Shown here one piece after another: positions 53,877 through 62,253 of a stretch of DNA of 64,000 nucleotides (position 1 is its first letter; every line of letters begins with the position of its first letter). The position numbers were made by a program, and so were the translations under genes. The notes under the pieces were generated by a model. The model made no database searches and was not told where the DNA came from. It saw nothing but the letters and a program-made list of their open reading frames with translations. Source of the DNA: Candidatus Omnitrophota bacterium (GTDB taxonomy: Bacteria > Omnitrophota > Gorgyraeia > Gygaellales > Profunditerraquicolaceae); assembly GCA_026387335.1 (NCBI GenBank), contig JAPLLX010000007.1, forward strand, positions 243 to 64,242, read 5' to 3'.

Positions 53877-53954
53877 CGGGGGATGGCTCAGTTTGGCTAG
53901 AGCGCTTGCTTTGGGAGCAAGAGGTCGAGAGTTCAAATCTCTCTCCCCCGACCA
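53877..53954 (+). tRNA. tRNA-Pro (anticodon UGG), CCA encoded
   Basis: Hand-folded cloverleaf: acceptor CGGGGGA/TCCCCCG, anticodon loop TTTGGGA with G37. Confidence 0.85.
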
Positions 53955-53979
53955 TATTTGACAATTTGAATAAAGAAAT

Positions 53980-54053
53980 GCGCCTGTAGCTCAAATGGAT
54001 AGAGCAATTGCCTTCTAAGCAATAGGTTGGCCGTTCGATTCGGCCCAGGCGCA
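53980..54053 (+). tRNA. tRNA-Arg (anticodon UCU)
   Basis: Hand-folded: acceptor GCGCCTG/CAGGCGC, anticodon loop CTTCTAA. Confidence 0.85.
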
Positions 54054-54066
54054 TAAAAATAAAGTT

Positions 54067-55242
54067 ATGAATAAGACTGAAAAAATCTTAGGACTAAGTA
54101 TCATAAGCCTAGCCATTATATTTGGGGCAATATATATATTCTTAAGCGTAGCCGGCAAGTCAATTATCGCTAAAACCCTTGAGTCCTTGACCCATAAGAA
54201 AACGACCGTAGGTTATTTTAACCTTAGCCCGACGCTGGATTTAGAAATCAAGAAGCTGGATATTGACGGCCTGGCTAAAATAGATTCAATTTATATTTCG
54301 CCCAACCTCTTAAGTCTTTTTAGCGGAAAAGTTATCGTTAACAGTTTTAAACTTGTTTCTCCGGAGTTTACTATTACTAAAGCTCCTCCCGCGGTAGTGA
54401 ATGAGCAAAAAACCAGCGTTGACCTTATTTCGGCGGCGCCGCCTACACCGCCTGAGTCTATCCAGCCTAAAGAATTAAAACTCCTGCCGTTTGGTTTTAA
54501 GCGTATCAGGATTGAAAACGGCATAGTTAATTACATTGATCAAAGTATAAGCGCCAACGGAATAAAAATAGTTTTAAAGGATATAAGTTGTAAAATATCC
54601 AACCTTTATTTTTTCCCGCGGCGCGGAATCACTAATTTTGAGTTAAAAGGGAAGATCCCCTGGAGAGAAGGACAGGTAAACGGCCAGTTGGATATTGAAG
54701 GATGGCTTAATTTCTTTAAGAAGGATATGCAGGCAGCTTTAAAGATCAAGGATATTGACGCTATTTATCTATATCCTTATTATTCTAATTGGGTAAATTT
54801 GGAAAAAGCGCGCATAGAAAGGGCCAAGCTCAATTTTTCAGTCGATATTAACGGTTTAAACAATAATATTATCGCGGAATGCCATTTGGCTCTGACCGAT
54901 ATGGTGCGCAAGCCGCTGGAAGCCGGAGAAGCCGAAGAAAAGGCGTCTAAGCTTACGAATAAAGTTTTAGATATGTTTAAAGCTGTTGATCAGGGCAAGG
55001 TGGAATTGAATTTTAGCGTAAAGACTAAAATGGATAATCCGCAATTTGGATTTGGTAATTTCAAAATGGCTTTTGAGGATAAGATTACCAAAGGTATGAG
55101 TTTGGGCTTTAAGCCGGAGAATGCTTTAGTTTTTCCGCTTAAGGTTATGGAAGGCGGAGTCAGAAGTTTCGCGGATTTGACCCGGGCGGCGATTGACGGG
55201 ATCTTTGCCATCGGTAACGGAGTTATCCAATCCGCTAAATAA
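54067..55242 (+). CDS. Hypothetical membrane-anchored periplasmic protein (AsmA/DUF748-like?)
   Basis: N-terminal TM and beta-rich repeats. Weak family assignment. Confidence 0.3.
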   Translation: MNKTEKILGLSIISLAIIFGAIYIFLSVAGKSIIAKTLESLTHKKTTVGYFNLSPTLDLEIKKLDIDGLAKIDSIYISPNLLSLFSGKVIVNSFKLVSPEFTITKAPPAVVNEQKTSVDLISAAPPTPPESIQPKELKLLPFGFKRIRIENGIVNYIDQSISANGIKIVLKDISCKISNLYFFPRRGITNFELKGKIPWREGQVNGQLDIEGWLNFFKKDMQAALKIKDIDAIYLYPYYSNWVNLEKARIERAKLNFSVDINGLNNNIIAECHLALTDMVRKPLEAGEAEEKASKLTNKVLDMFKAVDQGKVELNFSVKTKMDNPQFGFGNFKMAFEDKITKGMSLGFKPENALVFPLKVMEGGVRSFADLTRAAIDGIFAIGNGVIQSAK

Positions 55243-55304
55243 CGGGGCAATAATTTATTAGTAAGATTGCTCTATTTGTGTTAGGCTTTATTTGATAATT
55301 TAAT

Positions 55305-55381
55305 GGTGGCTATAGCTCAATTGGTTAGAGCGTTAGACTGTGGCTCTAAAGGTTGCGGGTTCGATCCCCGTTAGCCACCCA
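55305..55381 (+). tRNA. tRNA-His (anticodon GUG) with encoded G-1
   Basis: Hand-folded: G-1 + GTGGCTA/TAGCCAC + C73, anticodon loop CTGTGGC. Confidence 0.85.
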
Positions 55382-57443: not shown

Positions 57444-57689
57444 ATGCCTTGGTCACTTTACATAGTTAAATGCCAAGATACATCCCTTTACACCGGCATC
57501 ACAACCGATATCCCCCGTCGGCTCAAAGAGCATAATGCCAAGAAGGGCGCGTTTTATACCAAGAATAAGATTCCGGTTGAGCTTGTGTACCAAGAGCCAA
57601 TGCGGAATCGCTCCGAAGCCCTTAAACGCGAATCCGCCATTAAGAAGCTGACAAGGAAACAAAAGCTGCAATTGTTACCCACTAAATAA
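57444..57689 (+). CDS. Small GIY-YIG nuclease-family protein (UPF0213/YhbQ-like)
   Basis: LYIVKCQDTSLYTGITTDIPRRLKEHN motif. Confidence 0.75.
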   Translation: MPWSLYIVKCQDTSLYTGITTDIPRRLKEHNAKKGAFYTKNKIPVELVYQEPMRNRSEALKRESAIKKLTRKQKLQLLPTK

Positions 57690-57738: not shown

Positions 57739-58026
57739 ATGACTAATGCAATTTCGGTTGAAGTTATAGCTACAAAGATCTTAGAGATAAGAGGTAAAAA
57801 GGTTATGCTGGATAGCGATCTGGCTAAGCTTTATGGCGTAGAAACCAAAGTATTAATTCAGGCTGTAAGAAGAAATAAGGCGCGCTTCCCGCTCGACTTC
57901 ATGTATATACTCACAAGACAAGAGGTTATGAACTTGAGGTCACAAATTGTGACCTCAAGTTGGAGCGGGAGAAGAATTGAGTTATCTTCTTCGTTGTCAA
58001 GCCTACCCAAAAGTGCTATAATTTAA
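57739..58026 (+). CDS. ORF6N (KilA-N-like) domain protein, C-terminally truncated/degenerate
   Basis: IRGKKVMLDSDLAKLYGVETKVLIQAVRRNKARFPLDFMY...RSQIVTSSWSGRR. Family C-terminal region absent. Confidence 0.6.
   Translation: MTNAISVEVIATKILEIRGKKVMLDSDLAKLYGVETKVLIQAVRRNKARFPLDFMYILTRQEVMNLRSQIVTSSWSGRRIELSSSLSSLPKSAII
57995..58022 (+). promoter_or_regulatory. Strong promoter TTGTCA-N16-TGcTATAAT (extended -10) at the 3' end of the ORF6N gene
   Basis: Direct reading. Confidence 0.5.
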
Positions 58027-58042
58027 CAACTTAGGAGAAAAT

Positions 58043-58081
58043 ATGTCTTTAGCTGAGTTTGCGATCACCTTATATTTATAA
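58043..58081 (+). CDS. Candidate 12-codon leader peptide uORF (MSLAEFAITLYL) with strong SD
   Basis: aggagaaaatATG. Stop TAA 10 nt upstream of a terminator hairpin. Confidence 0.25.
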   Translation: MSLAEFAITLYL

Positions 58082-58090
58082 CTATATTTA

Positions 58091-58117
58091 ACCCAGCCAC
58101 GTAGACTGGGTTTTTTT
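58091..58117 (+). terminator. Hairpin ACCCAG-ccacgtaga-CTGGGT + T7 between the uORF and the MazG-like gene (attenuator candidate)
   Basis: Direct reading. Confidence 0.45.
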
Positions 58118-58142
58118 GTTTCACTTTAGAAAAGGAGTTTTG

Positions 58143-58490
58143 ATGAACGAAATGAAAGAAATTACTGAAAAAATCAAGAAATTTAGAGATGAGCGTGACT
58201 GGATGCAATTTCATGATCCTAAGAATATGGCTGTTTCAATAATACTCGAAGCTTCTGAGCTGCTTGAGCATTTTCAATGGAAAACTACCGAAGAAGTAGA
58301 AAGATATTCAAGGAAAAATCTCGCTGAGATTAAGGATGAAATTGCAGACATAGCCTTATATCTTTTTGAATTAGCCGATAATCTCGGTATCAATTTAATT
58401 GATGCGATGGATCAAAAACTTAAAAAAAATGAAATGAAATATCCGGTGGAAAAAGCTAAAGGAAAGCATACAAAATACAATAAGCTATGA
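58143..58490 (+). CDS. MazG-like nucleoside triphosphate pyrophosphohydrolase (small all-alpha NTP-PPase)
   Basis: ERDWMQFHDPKNMAVSIILEASELLEHFQW...EIADIALYLFELAD. SD aaaggag. ATGA overlap with next gene. Listed TTG start 58116 lies in the T-tract. Confidence 0.7.
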   Translation: MNEMKEITEKIKKFRDERDWMQFHDPKNMAVSIILEASELLEHFQWKTTEEVERYSRKNLAEIKDEIADIALYLFELADNLGINLIDAMDQKLKKNEMKYPVEKAKGKHTKYNKL

Positions 58491-60865
58491 GACTCTATGA
58501 GGGGTCAATCAAGGAATTTTCGGAAGACGTAATACATAATCGTATCGCAGATATATTAAAAGATAACTTTCTCGCCTACTATAGAAGACCACCCTCAGAA
58601 CCAGAATATCGTTCCTGGCAGCAGTCACTAAATTTCCTAAATAACGCATTCACGTATTCAGATTTATTGAATAATAAAATAATAGTGGAGTATGAATTAC
58701 CATATTCAACTCGGCGCATCGATGTGTTGGTGTTTGGGAAGAATAATTCAAATAAGGATAGTGTTGTTTTAATGGAGTTAAAGCAATGGTCTAATGAACA
58801 TGTCTATGATTGTGAAAATGAAGGTAATGTAATAATAGATTTTCTTGGTAAGAGAGAGGTAGCTCATCCTTGTTTACAAGTTGAAGGATATCATTTTGAT
58901 TTATTAGATTTTCTGTTGATTTTTAATAGTGATGACGCAGTGCAGCTAAATTCTTGCACATATTGTCACAATTATACTAAGCAAAAAGAAAACATACTCT
59001 CGCTCCCCAAATTCCATAAATTCACCAAGGCTTTTCCTCTGTTTCTCAAAGAAGATGTCAGAGAATTGGGCCTTTATTTGCAGGAGAGATTAAAGAATAG
59101 TGACGGGCTAGAAGTCTTTAGTCGTTTTTTAAATAGCCCTGTTCGACCTTCGAAAAGATTACTAGATCACACTGGCGATATGATTCATAAGCAGCAAATA
59201 TTTACGCTTATTGATGATCAAATCGCTGCTTATAATGCGATTATTAGCAAAGCTAAGCAGTTAACTAAGACAAGTACAAAGTCTATTATTGTTGTAAAGG
59301 GTGGTCCTGGAACAGGCAAGTCAGTAATTGCATTAGAAGTTATGGGCGAGCTGATGCGTCAGGGTAAGGTTGTATATCATGCTACCGGTTCATCCGCATT
59401 TACAAATACATTGAGAAAAATTGTTGGACGTAGAGCATCAAATCTCTTCAAATTCTTTTTTAACTTTACGCAGCACAAGGAGAACGAAATCGATGTTCTG
59501 ATATGCGATGAGGCCCATAGGATTAGGTCGGATAGCAATGATTATGGGGTGCCTTCTAAATTTAAATCAAAAAACCCTCAAATAGATGATCTTATAAGGC
59601 CCGCAAAGTTATCGATATTTTTTATAGATGAATTCCAGATTGTCCGTCCAAAGGAGATTGGTAGTGCTGAATTAATAAAAAGTTCAGCCGCTAAATTTGG
59701 CGTAAATGATAAAGACATTGTAGAATTCGAACTTAGGACGCAGTTCCGTTGTTCCGGGTCAGATGCATATTTACAGTGGTTAGACAAGCTACTGGAGATT
59801 AGAGAGTCTGATATAGATATTTTTGATGCAAAAATGGAGTTTAGAATTTTTGAAACTCCAGTAGATTTAAAAAGAGCAATTGATGAGAAAAATAGACACA
59901 AGGAGAATTTAGCTAGAATTGTTGCTGGTTTCTGTTGGAAATGGAGTGAACCGAATCCAGACGGTTCATTAGTAAAAGATGTTCAAATAGGTGACTTTCA
60001 AATGCCCTGGGAGAAGAAGGATGAATTTTGGAAGTGGGCTACTGATAAGAGTGGTATGGAGCAGGTTGGGACAGTCTATACAGCTCAAGGTTTTGAATTT
60101 GACTATATAGGTGTAATCTTTGGAGACGACCTCGTTTGGCGCAAAGATAAAGGTTGGATTAGTATTCCTGAGAATTCTTTTGATAAACAGGTTTTAAGAG
60201 GGAATCAAAAGCTAACTGATCATCTTAAACATGTTTATAGAGTGTTGATGTCGCGCGCTCATAAGGGAGTTTATTTGTATTTCATGGACAAAGAAACAGA
60301 AATGTTTTTTAGGACTAAGATTGAAAGCAGGGATGGCGCTTTGATGTTTTCTGATATTGTTAAAGAGGATGAAAAGCAGTCTAAAGAGCCAGTGCCGACG
60401 ATCCCGGAAAATCTGCAGTTTAGAGATTATCTCCCTATTTTATCACTTGAAGCGGTTGCAACGTCATTCGGTAAAGAAACACAGGTTGAACAAGAACCGA
60501 TTGGTTGGATCAAGGCCGATATCCCTAGAACTTTGAATAAAGACATGTTTGTTGCGAAAGTGGTAGGTAAGTCAATGGAACCGACTATTCCTGATGGAAG
60601 CTATTGCGTATTTCGCTTTGACAAAGGAGGGACCAGGAATGGATTAGCTGTCCTTGTGGAGTGTCATTTAATTTCTGACCCTGAAACGACGAGGCAGTTT
60701 ACAATAAAGCGGTATAAAAGCGAGAAAGAATATTTTGACGATGGGACATGGAGACATAAGAAAATAATTCTTTCTCCTGATAATAATGATTTTAAAGATA
60801 TCGTTTTGGAAGATGTGCCCGCTATCGAATTTCGAGTTGTAGCGGAGTTTATGTGTGTTTTATAA
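58487..60865 (+). CDS. Multidomain defense-like protein: PD-(D/E)xK nuclease motif + DUF2075/Schlafen-Nhi-like DEAH ATPase + C-terminal LexA/S24-type Ser-Lys peptidase domain
   Basis: E68/D79/E97-x-K99 (VEYE...RIDVLVF...VVLMELKQW). Walker A GGPGTGKS (aa 272-279) and Walker B VLICDEAHRI. C-terminal VGKSMEPTIPDGSYCVF...FTIKRY preceded by LEAVATSFG. Confidence 0.7.
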   Translation: MRLYEGSIKEFSEDVIHNRIADILKDNFLAYYRRPPSEPEYRSWQQSLNFLNNAFTYSDLLNNKIIVEYELPYSTRRIDVLVFGKNNSNKDSVVLMELKQWSNEHVYDCENEGNVIIDFLGKREVAHPCLQVEGYHFDLLDFLLIFNSDDAVQLNSCTYCHNYTKQKENILSLPKFHKFTKAFPLFLKEDVRELGLYLQERLKNSDGLEVFSRFLNSPVRPSKRLLDHTGDMIHKQQIFTLIDDQIAAYNAIISKAKQLTKTSTKSIIVVKGGPGTGKSVIALEVMGELMRQGKVVYHATGSSAFTNTLRKIVGRRASNLFKFFFNFTQHKENEIDVLICDEAHRIRSDSNDYGVPSKFKSKNPQIDDLIRPAKLSIFFIDEFQIVRPKEIGSAELIKSSAAKFGVNDKDIVEFELRTQFRCSGSDAYLQWLDKLLEIRESDIDIFDAKMEFRIFETPVDLKRAIDEKNRHKENLARIVAGFCWKWSEPNPDGSLVKDVQIGDFQMPWEKKDEFWKWATDKSGMEQVGTVYTAQGFEFDYIGVIFGDDLVWRKDKGWISIPENSFDKQVLRGNQKLTDHLKHVYRVLMSRAHKGVYLYFMDKETEMFFRTKIESRDGALMFSDIVKEDEKQSKEPVPTIPENLQFRDYLPILSLEAVATSFGKETQVEQEPIGWIKADIPRTLNKDMFVAKVVGKSMEPTIPDGSYCVFRFDKGGTRNGLAVLVECHLISDPETTRQFTIKRYKSEKEYFDDGTWRHKKIILSPDNNDFKDIVLEDVPAIEFRVVAEFMCVL

Positions 60866-60875
60866 TTTCTAAATA

Positions 60876-61571
60876 ATGTTTAAAGCCGGTGATGTAATTT
60901 CATACATTGAAATGTGCCAAGAAGAAGGTATAAGTCTTCAAAGAGGAATGAACTTTCGACTTAAAGGAAGACACAGTGTAATATTGATGAGTCTCAGACG
61001 CAATGCTCCATATGCTGATAAGGTTGAAGATAATGGCAAGACATTAATATACGAAGGTCATGATATCCCTCGGTTTAATAGAGCTCAAGATTCAAAGCTG
61101 GTTTCTCAACAAATGCAGAATCCCGGAGGTAGTTTAACTCAGAATGGGTTTTTTTATAAAGCAGCGCATGATTACAAAAATAAGAAGTCTGATGCAGAGC
61201 TAGTCAAGGTATATGAAAAAATTCATTCAGGAATATGGGCTTATAACGGTTTATTTAAACTAGTTGATTCGTGGCAAGAAGAATCGAATAAAAGAAAAGT
61301 ATTTAAATTCAGACTTGAAATAGATAAAATAAATTCTAAGGGCAAACAGCCAGAAAATTTTGATTTGGATCGTAACAGATTAATACCTGCATCTGTAAAG
61401 CTAGCGGTTTGGAAGAGGGATAAGGGGAAGTGTACTAAATGCGGCAGCCCTGATAATTTACATTTCGACCACATAATTCCTTATTCAAAAGGCGGGTCTT
61501 CTTTAGTTGCAGAAAACATTCAGTTGTTATGCGCAAGACATAATATTGAAAAGCGAGATAGGATTGAATAA
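60876..61571 (+). CDS. SRA/PUA-like N-terminal domain + C-terminal HNH endonuclease (type IV restriction-like architecture)
   Basis: HNH motif CTKCGSPDNLHFDHIIPYSKGGSSLVAENIQLLCARHN. N-terminus EEGISLQRGMNFRLKGRHSVILMS...KVEDNGKTLIYEGHD resembles the SRA/YDG core. Confidence 0.6.
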   Translation: MFKAGDVISYIEMCQEEGISLQRGMNFRLKGRHSVILMSLRRNAPYADKVEDNGKTLIYEGHDIPRFNRAQDSKLVSQQMQNPGGSLTQNGFFYKAAHDYKNKKSDAELVKVYEKIHSGIWAYNGLFKLVDSWQEESNKRKVFKFRLEIDKINSKGKQPENFDLDRNRLIPASVKLAVWKRDKGKCTKCGSPDNLHFDHIIPYSKGGSSLVAENIQLLCARHNIEKRDRIE

Positions 61572-61657
61572 AGGTTATGAGATGGATAGCGCCGCTTCTA
61601 ATTTTTAGGAAGTAGAAATGCCAATAAAACTAGGGGATGCTTCGGGGGTTTTAAGAT

Positions 61658-62017
61658 ATGTTTGAACAGAAACATCAAAAAATAGCTCCGGTTTCGGTAT
61701 TCATAAGAAGAGTGGCTGTATATATTGGAATCGCCATTCTGGTGATTTTAATCGCCCTGTTCATTGGGGTTGCCGGATATCATTGGATAGCTGGTTTTAG
61801 TTGGGTTGATTCATTGCTAAATGCGTCTATGATCCTGGGTGGCATGGGTCCGGTAAACCTGTTGAGTAATGCAAGCGCAAAAGTATTCGCCTCCCTGTAC
61901 GCGCTTTTCAGCGGTCTTGTATTTATTGCCGTAATGGGAATAGTTTTTACGCCAATCGTGCATAGAATGCTCCATAAATTTCATATGGATGAAAAAGATT
62001 TAAAGGGTTCGATATAA
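61658..62017 (+). CDS. Small 2-3 TM membrane protein, hypothetical
   Basis: Hydrophobic helices. Last gene of the low-GC island. Confidence 0.35.
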   Translation: MFEQKHQKIAPVSVFIRRVAVYIGIAILVILIALFIGVAGYHWIAGFSWVDSLLNASMILGGMGPVNLLSNASAKVFASLYALFSGLVFIAVMGIVFTPIVHRMLHKFHMDEKDLKGSI

Positions 62018-62023
62018 AGAGGG

Positions 62024-62051
62024 GAAATAATACTTGACAAATAGAGAACAA
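62024..62051 (+). promoter_or_regulatory. Consensus promoter TTGACA-N16-TATACT heading a ~200-nt leader with tandem terminators
   Basis: Direct reading. Near-identical to the 41204 promoter. Confidence 0.45.
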
Positions 62052-62092
62052 GTGTTATACTTTTAATAACAGCGATGTTAAAGAGGCACAGA

Positions 62093-62125
62093 AGCCCCAA
62101 AAATGTTTTGGGGTTTTTTCATTTT
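62093..62125 (+). terminator. Intrinsic terminator GCCCCAAAA-atg-TTTTGGGG-TTTTTT in the leader. Two further hairpin+T-tracts follow at about 62137..62175 and 62190..62237.
   Basis: Direct reading. Confidence 0.5.
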
Positions 62126-62253
62126 TAAGGACAAGGACGCCCTTTTTAAGGCAAAAACGCTTTGAAAGGGGCTTATTTTTTATAGACGATGGCGTCTTAA
62201 ATCCAGCGATGGATCAACGACGCCTTTTTTGTTTAGGCGGGAAAAGGGGATAA

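Follow-up and report, generated by a model that had tools for sequence, protein, structure and literature searches.

The 64,000-nucleotide stretch of Candidatus Omnitrophota contig JAPLLX010000007.1 analysed here (the window) carries a gene whose product combines an N-terminal SRA (YDG) domain with a C-terminal HNH nuclease domain, hereafter the SRA-HNH gene. It follows, on the same strand, a gene for a MazG-like enzyme and a gene for a large nuclease-helicase protein with an S24 peptidase domain (Table 1). The open reading frame (ORF) was singled out in an initial annotation made from the sequence alone for motifs that are indeed present in its translation, namely EEGISLQRGMNFRLKGRHSVILMS, YADKVEDNGKTLIYEGHD and CTKC...HFDHIIPYSKGG...ENIQLLCARHN. 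A database protein is 100% identical to the product of 231 amino acids (aa) and is annotated there as 'HNH endonuclease [Candidatus Omnitrophica bacterium]'.

Table 1 Features of the SRA-HNH gene and of the genes preceding it (positions are those of the window)
Feature	Positions	Strand	Basis and remarks
SRA-HNH gene	60876..61571	+	ORF list and sequence; ATG start, 231 aa plus stop codon
SRA (YDG) modified-base reader domain, aa 1-150	60876..61325	+	Pfam, profile, Foldseek; Q22, Y46, D48, Y59
Linker, aa 151-168, variable, low-confidence	61326..61379	+	Alignment; pLDDT
HNH (beta-beta-alpha-Me) nuclease domain, aa 169-231	61380..61568	+	Pfam HNH, HNH_5; PDB matches
792-aa nuclease-helicase-S24 protein, upstream neighbour	58487..60865	+	Pfam, PADLOC, conserved motifs
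MazG-like nucleoside triphosphate (NTP) pyrophosphohydrolase	58116..58490	+	Pfam MazG-like PF12643, E=4.9e-20
Best sigma-70-like promoter match, 11/12, extended -10	57994..58022	+	Pattern scan, ahead of MazG-like gene

The N-terminal domain was recognized by three kinds of search. The Pfam model SAD_SRA (PF02182) aligns with aa 31-148 at E=6.7e-7 and 29.6 bits, against a gathering cutoff of 30.7 bits; the relative L107 reaches 32.6 bits, and a precomputed PF02182 hit is on record for most homologues. A profile built from 36 family members and compared with the Protein Data Bank (PDB) matched the SRA domain of SUVH5 over aa 22-148 (E=7.6e-4), and SUVH9 and SUVH6 were also matched. In the AlphaFold2 model the mean predicted local distance difference test score (pLDDT) is 69.6, and averages of 72-94 are reached in several blocks of the N-terminal domain. 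When this model was compared with the PDB by Foldseek, all 50 hits at E<=0.001 were SRA domains, among them those of SUVH5 (the best, E=6.5e-7), KRYPTONITE, SUVH6/9, the SRA-HNH enzyme ScoMcrA (E=4e-5) and UHRF1/2.

The closest match in both sequence and structure, the SRA domain of Arabidopsis SUVH5 (PDB entries 3Q0B-3Q0F and 4YGI), allows the residues of the base-binding pocket to be compared. The HMMER alignment spans the QSG (Gln392-Ser393-Gly394) and GGYND (Gly414-Asp418) motifs of the SUVH5 chain and places Q22, G24, Y46, D48 and Y59 of the window protein opposite Gln392, Gly394, Tyr416, Asp418 and Tyr428. All five residues are conserved in 89 of 89 relatives, a set that includes a deep clade, 47-52% identical to the window protein, in which no SRA domain is detectable by Pfam. 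In SUVH5, Gln392 is the thumb residue that fills the space left by the flipped base and forms a pair with the orphan G, Tyr416 and Tyr428 stack on the flipped 5-methylcytosine (5mC) or 5-hydroxymethylcytosine (5hmC), and Asp418 reads its Watson-Crick edge (PMC4740795). The corresponding triad of the bacterial enzyme TagI is Y55/D58/Y67, the carboxylate of which picks cytosine over thymine and sterically excludes purines (PMC6212794). Judged by these correspondences, the flipped-base pocket, with two aromatic walls, a carboxylate and a thumb residue, appears to be intact. The rim that follows the second Tyr differs, being an invariant Y-E-G-H-D rather than the canonical Y-T-G-x-G-G of UHRF1, SUVH5 and TagI; in SUVH5 the residues after this Tyr are T-G-Q-G-G, compared with E-G-H-D here. 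SUVH5 is further set apart by its eukaryotic origin, by its fusion to a histone methyltransferase instead of a nuclease and by an identity to the window protein of 22-24%.

In the C-terminal domain, Pfam HNH (PF01844) matches aa 186-224 at E=4.6e-9, above the cutoff, HNH_5 matches as well, and the PDB matches are to the HNH domains of IscB and Cas9. The predicted zinc ligands are C186, C189, C219 and H222; the three cysteines are invariant in the 89 relatives and H222 is present in 88 of them. The pair D198-H199 is invariant too, and by analogy H199 would be the general base and D198 the preceding acidic metal ligand. Also invariant are H196, N214 and N223, the two asparagines being assigned, again by analogy, a structural role (N214) and that of last metal ligand (N223). 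The TagI zinc site is formed by C210/C213/C250/D253 and its active site by H229, N245 and H254 (PMC6212794), so that, residue class by residue class, the putative active and zinc sites of the window protein match those of TagI. The linker between the two domains is the sole poorly conserved, indel-rich stretch of the alignment, and pLDDT falls below 50 at aa 153-168. Both domains had been named in the initial annotation. Its SRA/YDG call agrees with the Pfam, profile and Foldseek results, and its alignment of 'YAD...LIYEGHD' to 'GGYEDD...FTYTGSGG' is correct; the fold of the modelled N-terminal domain is a nucleic-acid-binding one, and the HNH motif that it read at the C-terminus belongs to a complete HNH domain.

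By analogy with enzymes of the same architecture, the SRA-HNH gene probably encodes an autonomous, modified-cytosine-dependent (type IV) restriction endonuclease. The SRA domain would scan duplex DNA; on meeting a C5-modified cytosine (5mC and/or 5hmC), the thumb-loop residue Q22 would enter via the minor groove and the base would flip into the pocket, where it would be stacked between Y46 and Y59 while D48 reads its Watson-Crick edge. The flexibly linked HNH domain would nick or cut the DNA nearby, with H199 as the general base, D198 and N223 holding the catalytic metal, and C186/C189/C219/H222 holding a structural zinc ion. TagI dimerises through its HNH domain (PMC6212794), and the window protein may do the same. 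Such an enzyme would require no cognate methyltransferase, the host presumably being without the target modification.

TagI, ScoA3IV (Sco5333) and TbiR51I have the domain order seen here, with an N-terminal SRA domain, a flexible linker and a C-terminal HNH domain with a structural zinc (PMC6212794, PMC4333417, PMC6765204). The Tyr...Asp...Tyr logic of the TagI pocket (Y55/D58/Y67) is that of Y46/D48/Y59 in the window protein (PMC6212794), and enzymes of the TagI/ScoA3IV type share the HNH catalytic set and are encoded by single genes without a methyltransferase. The details differ. The pocket Asp lies at Tyr+2, as in SUVH5, but at Tyr+3 in TagI; the zinc site is CxxC...CxxH rather than CxxC...CxxD; and the last metal ligand is Asn (HNN), unlike H254 of TagI. 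With 231 aa, the protein is smaller than the ScoA3IV homologues SAV_3746 and AmaNI (515-540 aa) or the ScoMcrA chains (462-530 residues). Homologues of ScoA3IV number ~160 and occur mainly in Gram-positive, GC-rich Actino- and Proteobacteria (PMC6765204); Actinobacteria and Proteobacteria are the source of the characterised type, whereas the hosts here are uncultured anaerobes (Omnitrophota, Dehalococcoidia, Bathyarchaeia and others). Thus, the assignment of the gene in the initial annotation to SRA-HNH type IV enzymes of the TagI/ScoMcrA type holds for the architecture but not for the sequence: neither phmmer nor an hmmsearch with the family profile against all PDB chain sequences matched TagI or ScoMcrA, even at E<=10. 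A descent-level link by sequence was therefore rejected, and the likeness to ScoMcrA, as seen with the predicted model, is purely structural (Foldseek E=4e-5). The protein represents a separate, uncharacterised subfamily that has its architecture, and probably its mechanism, in common with the TagI type.

This subfamily is compact and strongly conserved. A word-indexed search recovered homologues in at least 7924 clusters, the best 120 of which are each ~230 aa long with identities of 66-100%, and an exhaustive search of 50%-identity representatives yielded 138 at E<=1e-30. Relatives are encoded in 517 of 185,579 species-representative genomes (one genome per species; 0.3%). The best 80 from this genome scan are 59-71% identical to the window protein, and their hosts are Dehalococcoidia, other Chloroflexota, Omnitrophota, Bathyarchaeia, Nitrospirota, delta-proteobacteria, Bacteroidota (the cultured Pontibacter ruber among them), Acidobacteriota, Planctomycetota and others. 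That bacteria and archaea share such identity suggests horizontal transfer under strong purifying selection. The gene was not found in cultured phages or plasmids, where tblastn matches were confined to the HNH domain, nor in introns or inteins, and IMG/VR (2.9 million viral contigs) holds a single partial copy. That phages, plasmids and viral contigs almost entirely lack the family is consistent with a cellular defence gene. On these HNH-only matches and the one partial viral copy, a reading of the gene as a mobile element or phage weapon was rejected.

We surveyed the surroundings of the gene at 71 distinct upstream-neighbour/genome loci. The family proved essentially solitary: a DUF2075-S24 gene adjoins it in 2 of the 71, no DNA methyltransferase recurs among the neighbours surveyed, and most neighbours are unrelated housekeeping genes (tRNA synthetases, GcpE, CoA-transferases). 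The sole recurrent partner is a small Xre-type helix-turn-helix (HTH) gene (~70-100 aa) found directly upstream in 11 of the 71, the start of SRA-HNH being abutted or overlapped in most of them; loci with this gene are L002-L005, L012, L020, L074-L077, L083, L084, L086 and L088, and the window copy is without it. A small HTH gene in this position calls to mind the controller (C) proteins known from restriction systems. In Candidatus Tritonobacter (L002-L005:8729-11736) a solitary SRA-HNH gene has as its neighbours the genes for an N6/N4-type DNA methyltransferase and for a NotI-like endonuclease. A type II system in this position would be compatible with a type IV-like gene only if the methyltransferase product is not the base that the SRA domain reads.

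The three-gene cassette of the window recurs in the close relatives P0003 (85%) and P0004 (79%) and at the Omnitrophota locus L015; around the SRA-HNH genes of P0034, P0089 and P0119 the helicase gene is absent. At L015 (L015:5203-8690; JBAZGN010000004.1) divergence from the window is uneven, with identities of 89% for the MazG-like protein, 43% for DUF2075-S24 and 69% for SRA-HNH, a pattern suggesting that, in a conserved locus, modules have been swapped or the helicase has been under diversifying selection. In several independent samples of the P0003 lineage (e.g., L001:183-2070), two ORFs of 396 and 392 aa are called in place of a single DUF2075-S24 gene; SRA-HNH is intact there and is followed by a PDDEXK_1 gene. 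Several of these observations argue that the SRA-HNH enzyme is autonomous: (i) its neighbours in the 71 loci are mostly housekeeping genes, and the P0034, P0089 and P0119 contexts contain no helicase. (ii) The gene is intact in a lineage in which two ORFs are called for the helicase. (iii) Characterised SRA-HNH enzymes act as single proteins (PMC6212794, PMC6765204). As the last gene of the MazG-like/nuclease-DUF2075-helicase-S24 cassette, SRA-HNH would then be an optional and possibly synergistic add-on rather than an obligate subunit.

The relationship looks different from the helicase side, where we examined 80 metagenome loci (L091-L170), 61 of them with enough downstream sequence. Homologues of the 792-aa protein number in the thousands, and among them are forms of ~615 aa without the S24 domain. 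In 66 of the 80 loci the DUF2075 gene is preceded by a MazG-like gene (36-94% identical), directly adjacent in most, and the two form a strongly conserved two-gene unit; in the literature searched we found no description of the MazG-like + DUF2075 pairing or of the DUF2075-S24 fusion. SRA-HNH stands immediately downstream, on the same strand, in 7 of the 61 loci, behind S24-bearing and S24-less helicases alike and with gaps of -4, -4, -4, -4, -1, -1 and +3 nucleotides (nt). In a neighbour-joining tree, which is poorly resolved, the helicase-linked copies are interspersed with solitary ones at five or more places, and one deep clade consists of linked copies throughout. With the family present in 0.3% of species genomes, an adjacency of 11% is far above chance, and the association is real and recurrent. 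Even so, the closest relatives of the window helicase (L091-L099, 79-94% identical) are without SRA-HNH, and in ~89% of DUF2075 loci another gene, or nothing, occupies the downstream position. Its occupants include HNH_2 proteins (L099, L113 and one more), small PtuB-like HNH proteins (L104, L106), an Mrr_cat protein matching type IV models (L114), a pPIWI-associated nuclease (L096), a second DUF2075 paralogue (L095, L108), HAD hydrolases (L160, L167) and unrelated genes. The association is thus facultative both ways, with no obligate co-inheritance, and SRA-HNH is best read as one of several nucleases that occupy a variable position downstream of the conserved gene pair. In the linked loci the genes are likely to be co-regulated, and synergy with the DUF2075 module is possible. 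Of the coupling to a nuclease-ATPase proposed in the initial annotation, the part that stands is a recurrent arrangement of DUF2075 loci; it is not a property of the SRA-HNH family.

Within the window, the MazG-like gene and the gene for the 792-aa protein share 4 nt at the stop codon of the former and the start of the latter, and SRA-HNH begins 10 nt after the second of them. The true start of the MazG-like gene is likely the ATG at 58143, which gives a 115-aa protein as in homologues. The 792-aa protein has a PD-(D/E)xK-like N-terminal domain with invariant D79 and E97-x-K99, a DUF2075/Schlafen-group-3 helicase at aa 265-601 (PF09848, SLFN-g3_helicase; E=1.1e-83) and a LexA-like Peptidase_S24 domain at aa 679-783 (window 60521-60835; E=1.3e-6). 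The Ser696/Lys741 dyad of the S24 domain is invariant in 21 of 21 homologues, and 14 of the 21 have a LexA-type cleavage-site motif, 'AAA|G', upstream, the window clade having Ala-Thr there. These motifs suggest that the S24 domain could be a self-cleaving, possibly RecA*-responsive gate on the nuclease-helicase; it is missing from about two-thirds of the related loci recovered. The protein has the N-terminal nuclease and DUF2075 (PF09848) helicase by which Millman et al. define Nhi-like (nuclease-helicase immunity) proteins, and its PADLOC matches are to the candidate system PDC-S41, AbiO and Nhi (E=1.1e-12), all weak (E 1e-12 to 1e-17). Nhi and Nhi-like proteins are described as single proteins, whereas the helicase here has an S24 C-terminus, is paired with a conserved MazG-like gene and is followed by a nuclease gene that varies between loci.

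A pattern scan found no terminator-like site between the promoter match ahead of the MazG-like gene and 62090-62172, which is weakly suggestive of transcription of the cassette as one unit, in a scan whose total site counts are not above shuffled expectation. SRA-HNH is followed on the same strand (61658-62172 region) by a gene whose 119-aa product is predicted to be a membrane protein and matches no family. Since terminator-like hairpins first occur beyond this gene (at 62090-62118 and 62139-62172), a shared transcript is possible; the gene is not conserved at the related P0004 locus. The cassette (58000-61800) has a guanine-plus-cytosine content of 0.33-0.38, compared with 0.40-0.46 in its flanks, which is consistent with, but not decisive for, horizontal acquisition. 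A regular-expression search of window ORFs of at least 150 aa over all 64 kilobases (kb), which is a weak negative, found no C5 (PCQ-type) or N6/N4 (DPPY-type) methyltransferase motif; this fits a defence gene. Two genes just upstream of the cassette encode a GIY-YIG domain protein of 81 aa (57444-57689) and an ORF6N/KilA-N-like DNA-binding protein of 95 aa (57739-58026; PADLOC PDC-S05, E=3e-28). Upstream of MazG in other loci there is an ORF6N-like hit in L112 and a GIY-YIG hit in L091, L094, L106 and L168. Genes for tRNA-Pro, tRNA-Arg and tRNA-His (53877-55380) lie 3-4 kb upstream of the cassette.

How firmly can the protein be regarded as an autonomous modified-cytosine-dependent endonuclease? 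Several observations weigh against this. The SAD_SRA score of the window protein lies 1.1 bits below the gathering cutoff, confidence in the structural model is just moderate overall, and the sequence-level link to TagI and ScoMcrA is missing. The altered rim E-G-H-D implies that the preferred modification could differ, so that an exact preference should not be assumed, and an SRA-winged helix-HNH enzyme of an archaeal virus, HHPV4I, is reported to depend on N6-methyladenine (m6A) (PMC10101028). In addition, the recurrent, translationally overlapped position behind DUF2075 argues that at least some copies are not fully independent. The rim, the absent link to characterised 5mC-dependent SRA-HNH enzymes and the m6A precedent would all suit a protein of the same fold that binds another ligand (m6A, a hypermodified pyrimidine or a damaged base), or one in which the domain merely tethers the HNH nuclease and there is no dependence on modification; the varied specificity of PUA-superfamily-HNH enzymes (PMC6765204) points the same way. 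Against it stand the full conservation of the Tyr/Asp/Tyr triad, which in TagI selects cytosine over thymine and excludes purines (PMC6212794), the equally complete conservation of the Gln thumb residue and the fact that the closest matches in structure and sequence are SRA domains of the 5mC/5hmC-binding SUVH5 type. We give this alternative a small but appreciable chance. Far less credible, and in our view very improbable, is a selfish mobile or homing-type HNH gene, or a toxin controlled by the small HTH partner, rather than a defence enzyme. The 59-71% identity across distant phyla including archaea does imply frequent horizontal transfer, the gene does stand alone between housekeeping genes, and the Xre HTH gene is directly upstream in 11 of 71 loci; yet the gene was not found in introns, inteins, cultured phages or plasmids, one partial copy among 2.9 million viral contigs apart, and the conserved SRA reader pocket would have no role in homing. 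HTH controller genes are, moreover, typical of restriction systems.

The position of the gene raises the further question of whether it belongs to an obligate three-gene system, in which SRA-HNH would be a sensor or nicking subunit that acts only with the ATP-driven nuclease-helicase, by a logic like that of McrBC/GmrSD or Septu. The tight same-strand packing with its 4-nt overlap and 10-nt gap, the one good upstream promoter match and the absence of a terminator between would be expected of such a system. So would the same cassette in P0003, P0004 and L015, although the L015 DUF2075 is just 43% identical, the seven of 61 DUF2075 loci with SRA-HNH directly 3' at gaps of -4 to +3 nt and at least five tree positions, and the other nucleases found in the same slot (HNH_2, PtuB-like HNH, Mrr_cat, pPIWI-associated nuclease). 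A precedent exists in the McaZI group of modification-dependent enzymes, which adjoin DUF2075 NTPases and for which the authors propose cooperation and testing together (Lutz et al. 2019, PMC6765204). That group has a DUF3427-DUF3883 reader-nuclease, not SRA-HNH, and no MazG-like gene or S24 domain is mentioned for it. The comparison with McrBC and GmrSD drawn in the initial annotation is loose: what is shared is the broad concept that a reader of modified DNA works with an NTPase and a nuclease, but the ATPase here is a DUF2075/superfamily 1-like helicase with its own PD-(D/E)xK nuclease rather than an AAA+ GTPase or DUF262, the reader carries its own nuclease, and co-occurrence is facultative. 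The helicase accompanies SRA-HNH in just 2 of 71 distinct loci, the closest DUF2075 relatives (L091-L099) are without it, ~89% of DUF2075 loci have another occupant or none in the slot, the MazG-DUF2075 pair is conserved by itself, and characterised SRA-HNH enzymes and Nhi-type nuclease-helicases each work as single proteins. Obligate McrBC-like coupling was rejected on the two adjacency counts and those relatives, and we consider an obligate system unlikely. The most novel possibility, to which we would assign a small chance, is that SRA-HNH serves as the interchangeable reader-nuclease of an undescribed three-gene, modification-sensing defence cassette composed of a MazG-like enzyme, a PD-(D/E)xK-DUF2075 helicase (often with S24) and a nuclease that varies (HNH, Mrr or other). 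In such a cassette, nicks made by SRA-HNH at modified cytosines of invading DNA would be entry points for the nuclease-helicase and might, through RecA filaments, signal release of the S24-gated helicase, while the MazG-like enzyme would meanwhile remove modified deoxynucleoside triphosphates.

The probable type IV endonuclease is a known kind of enzyme, here in a new, uncharacterised and unusually conserved subfamily. Both domains are already recognized by standard annotation, so that a specialist would find the assignment unsurprising. The wider context may outweigh the gene itself: the MazG-like + nuclease-DUF2075(-S24) pair with its variable nuclease slot looks like a defence module, of which we found no description in the literature searched on it. 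If the activity is real, the protein would be a very compact (231 aa), highly conserved and widely transferred SRA-HNH modification-dependent endonuclease of a separate sequence family. Enzymes of the SRA-HNH type are useful reagents for mapping 5mC and 5hmC, and the altered pocket rim could give a new specificity. The spread of such an enzyme in uncultured anaerobic bacteria and archaea would also suggest that these organisms commonly meet invading DNA that contains modified cytosine.

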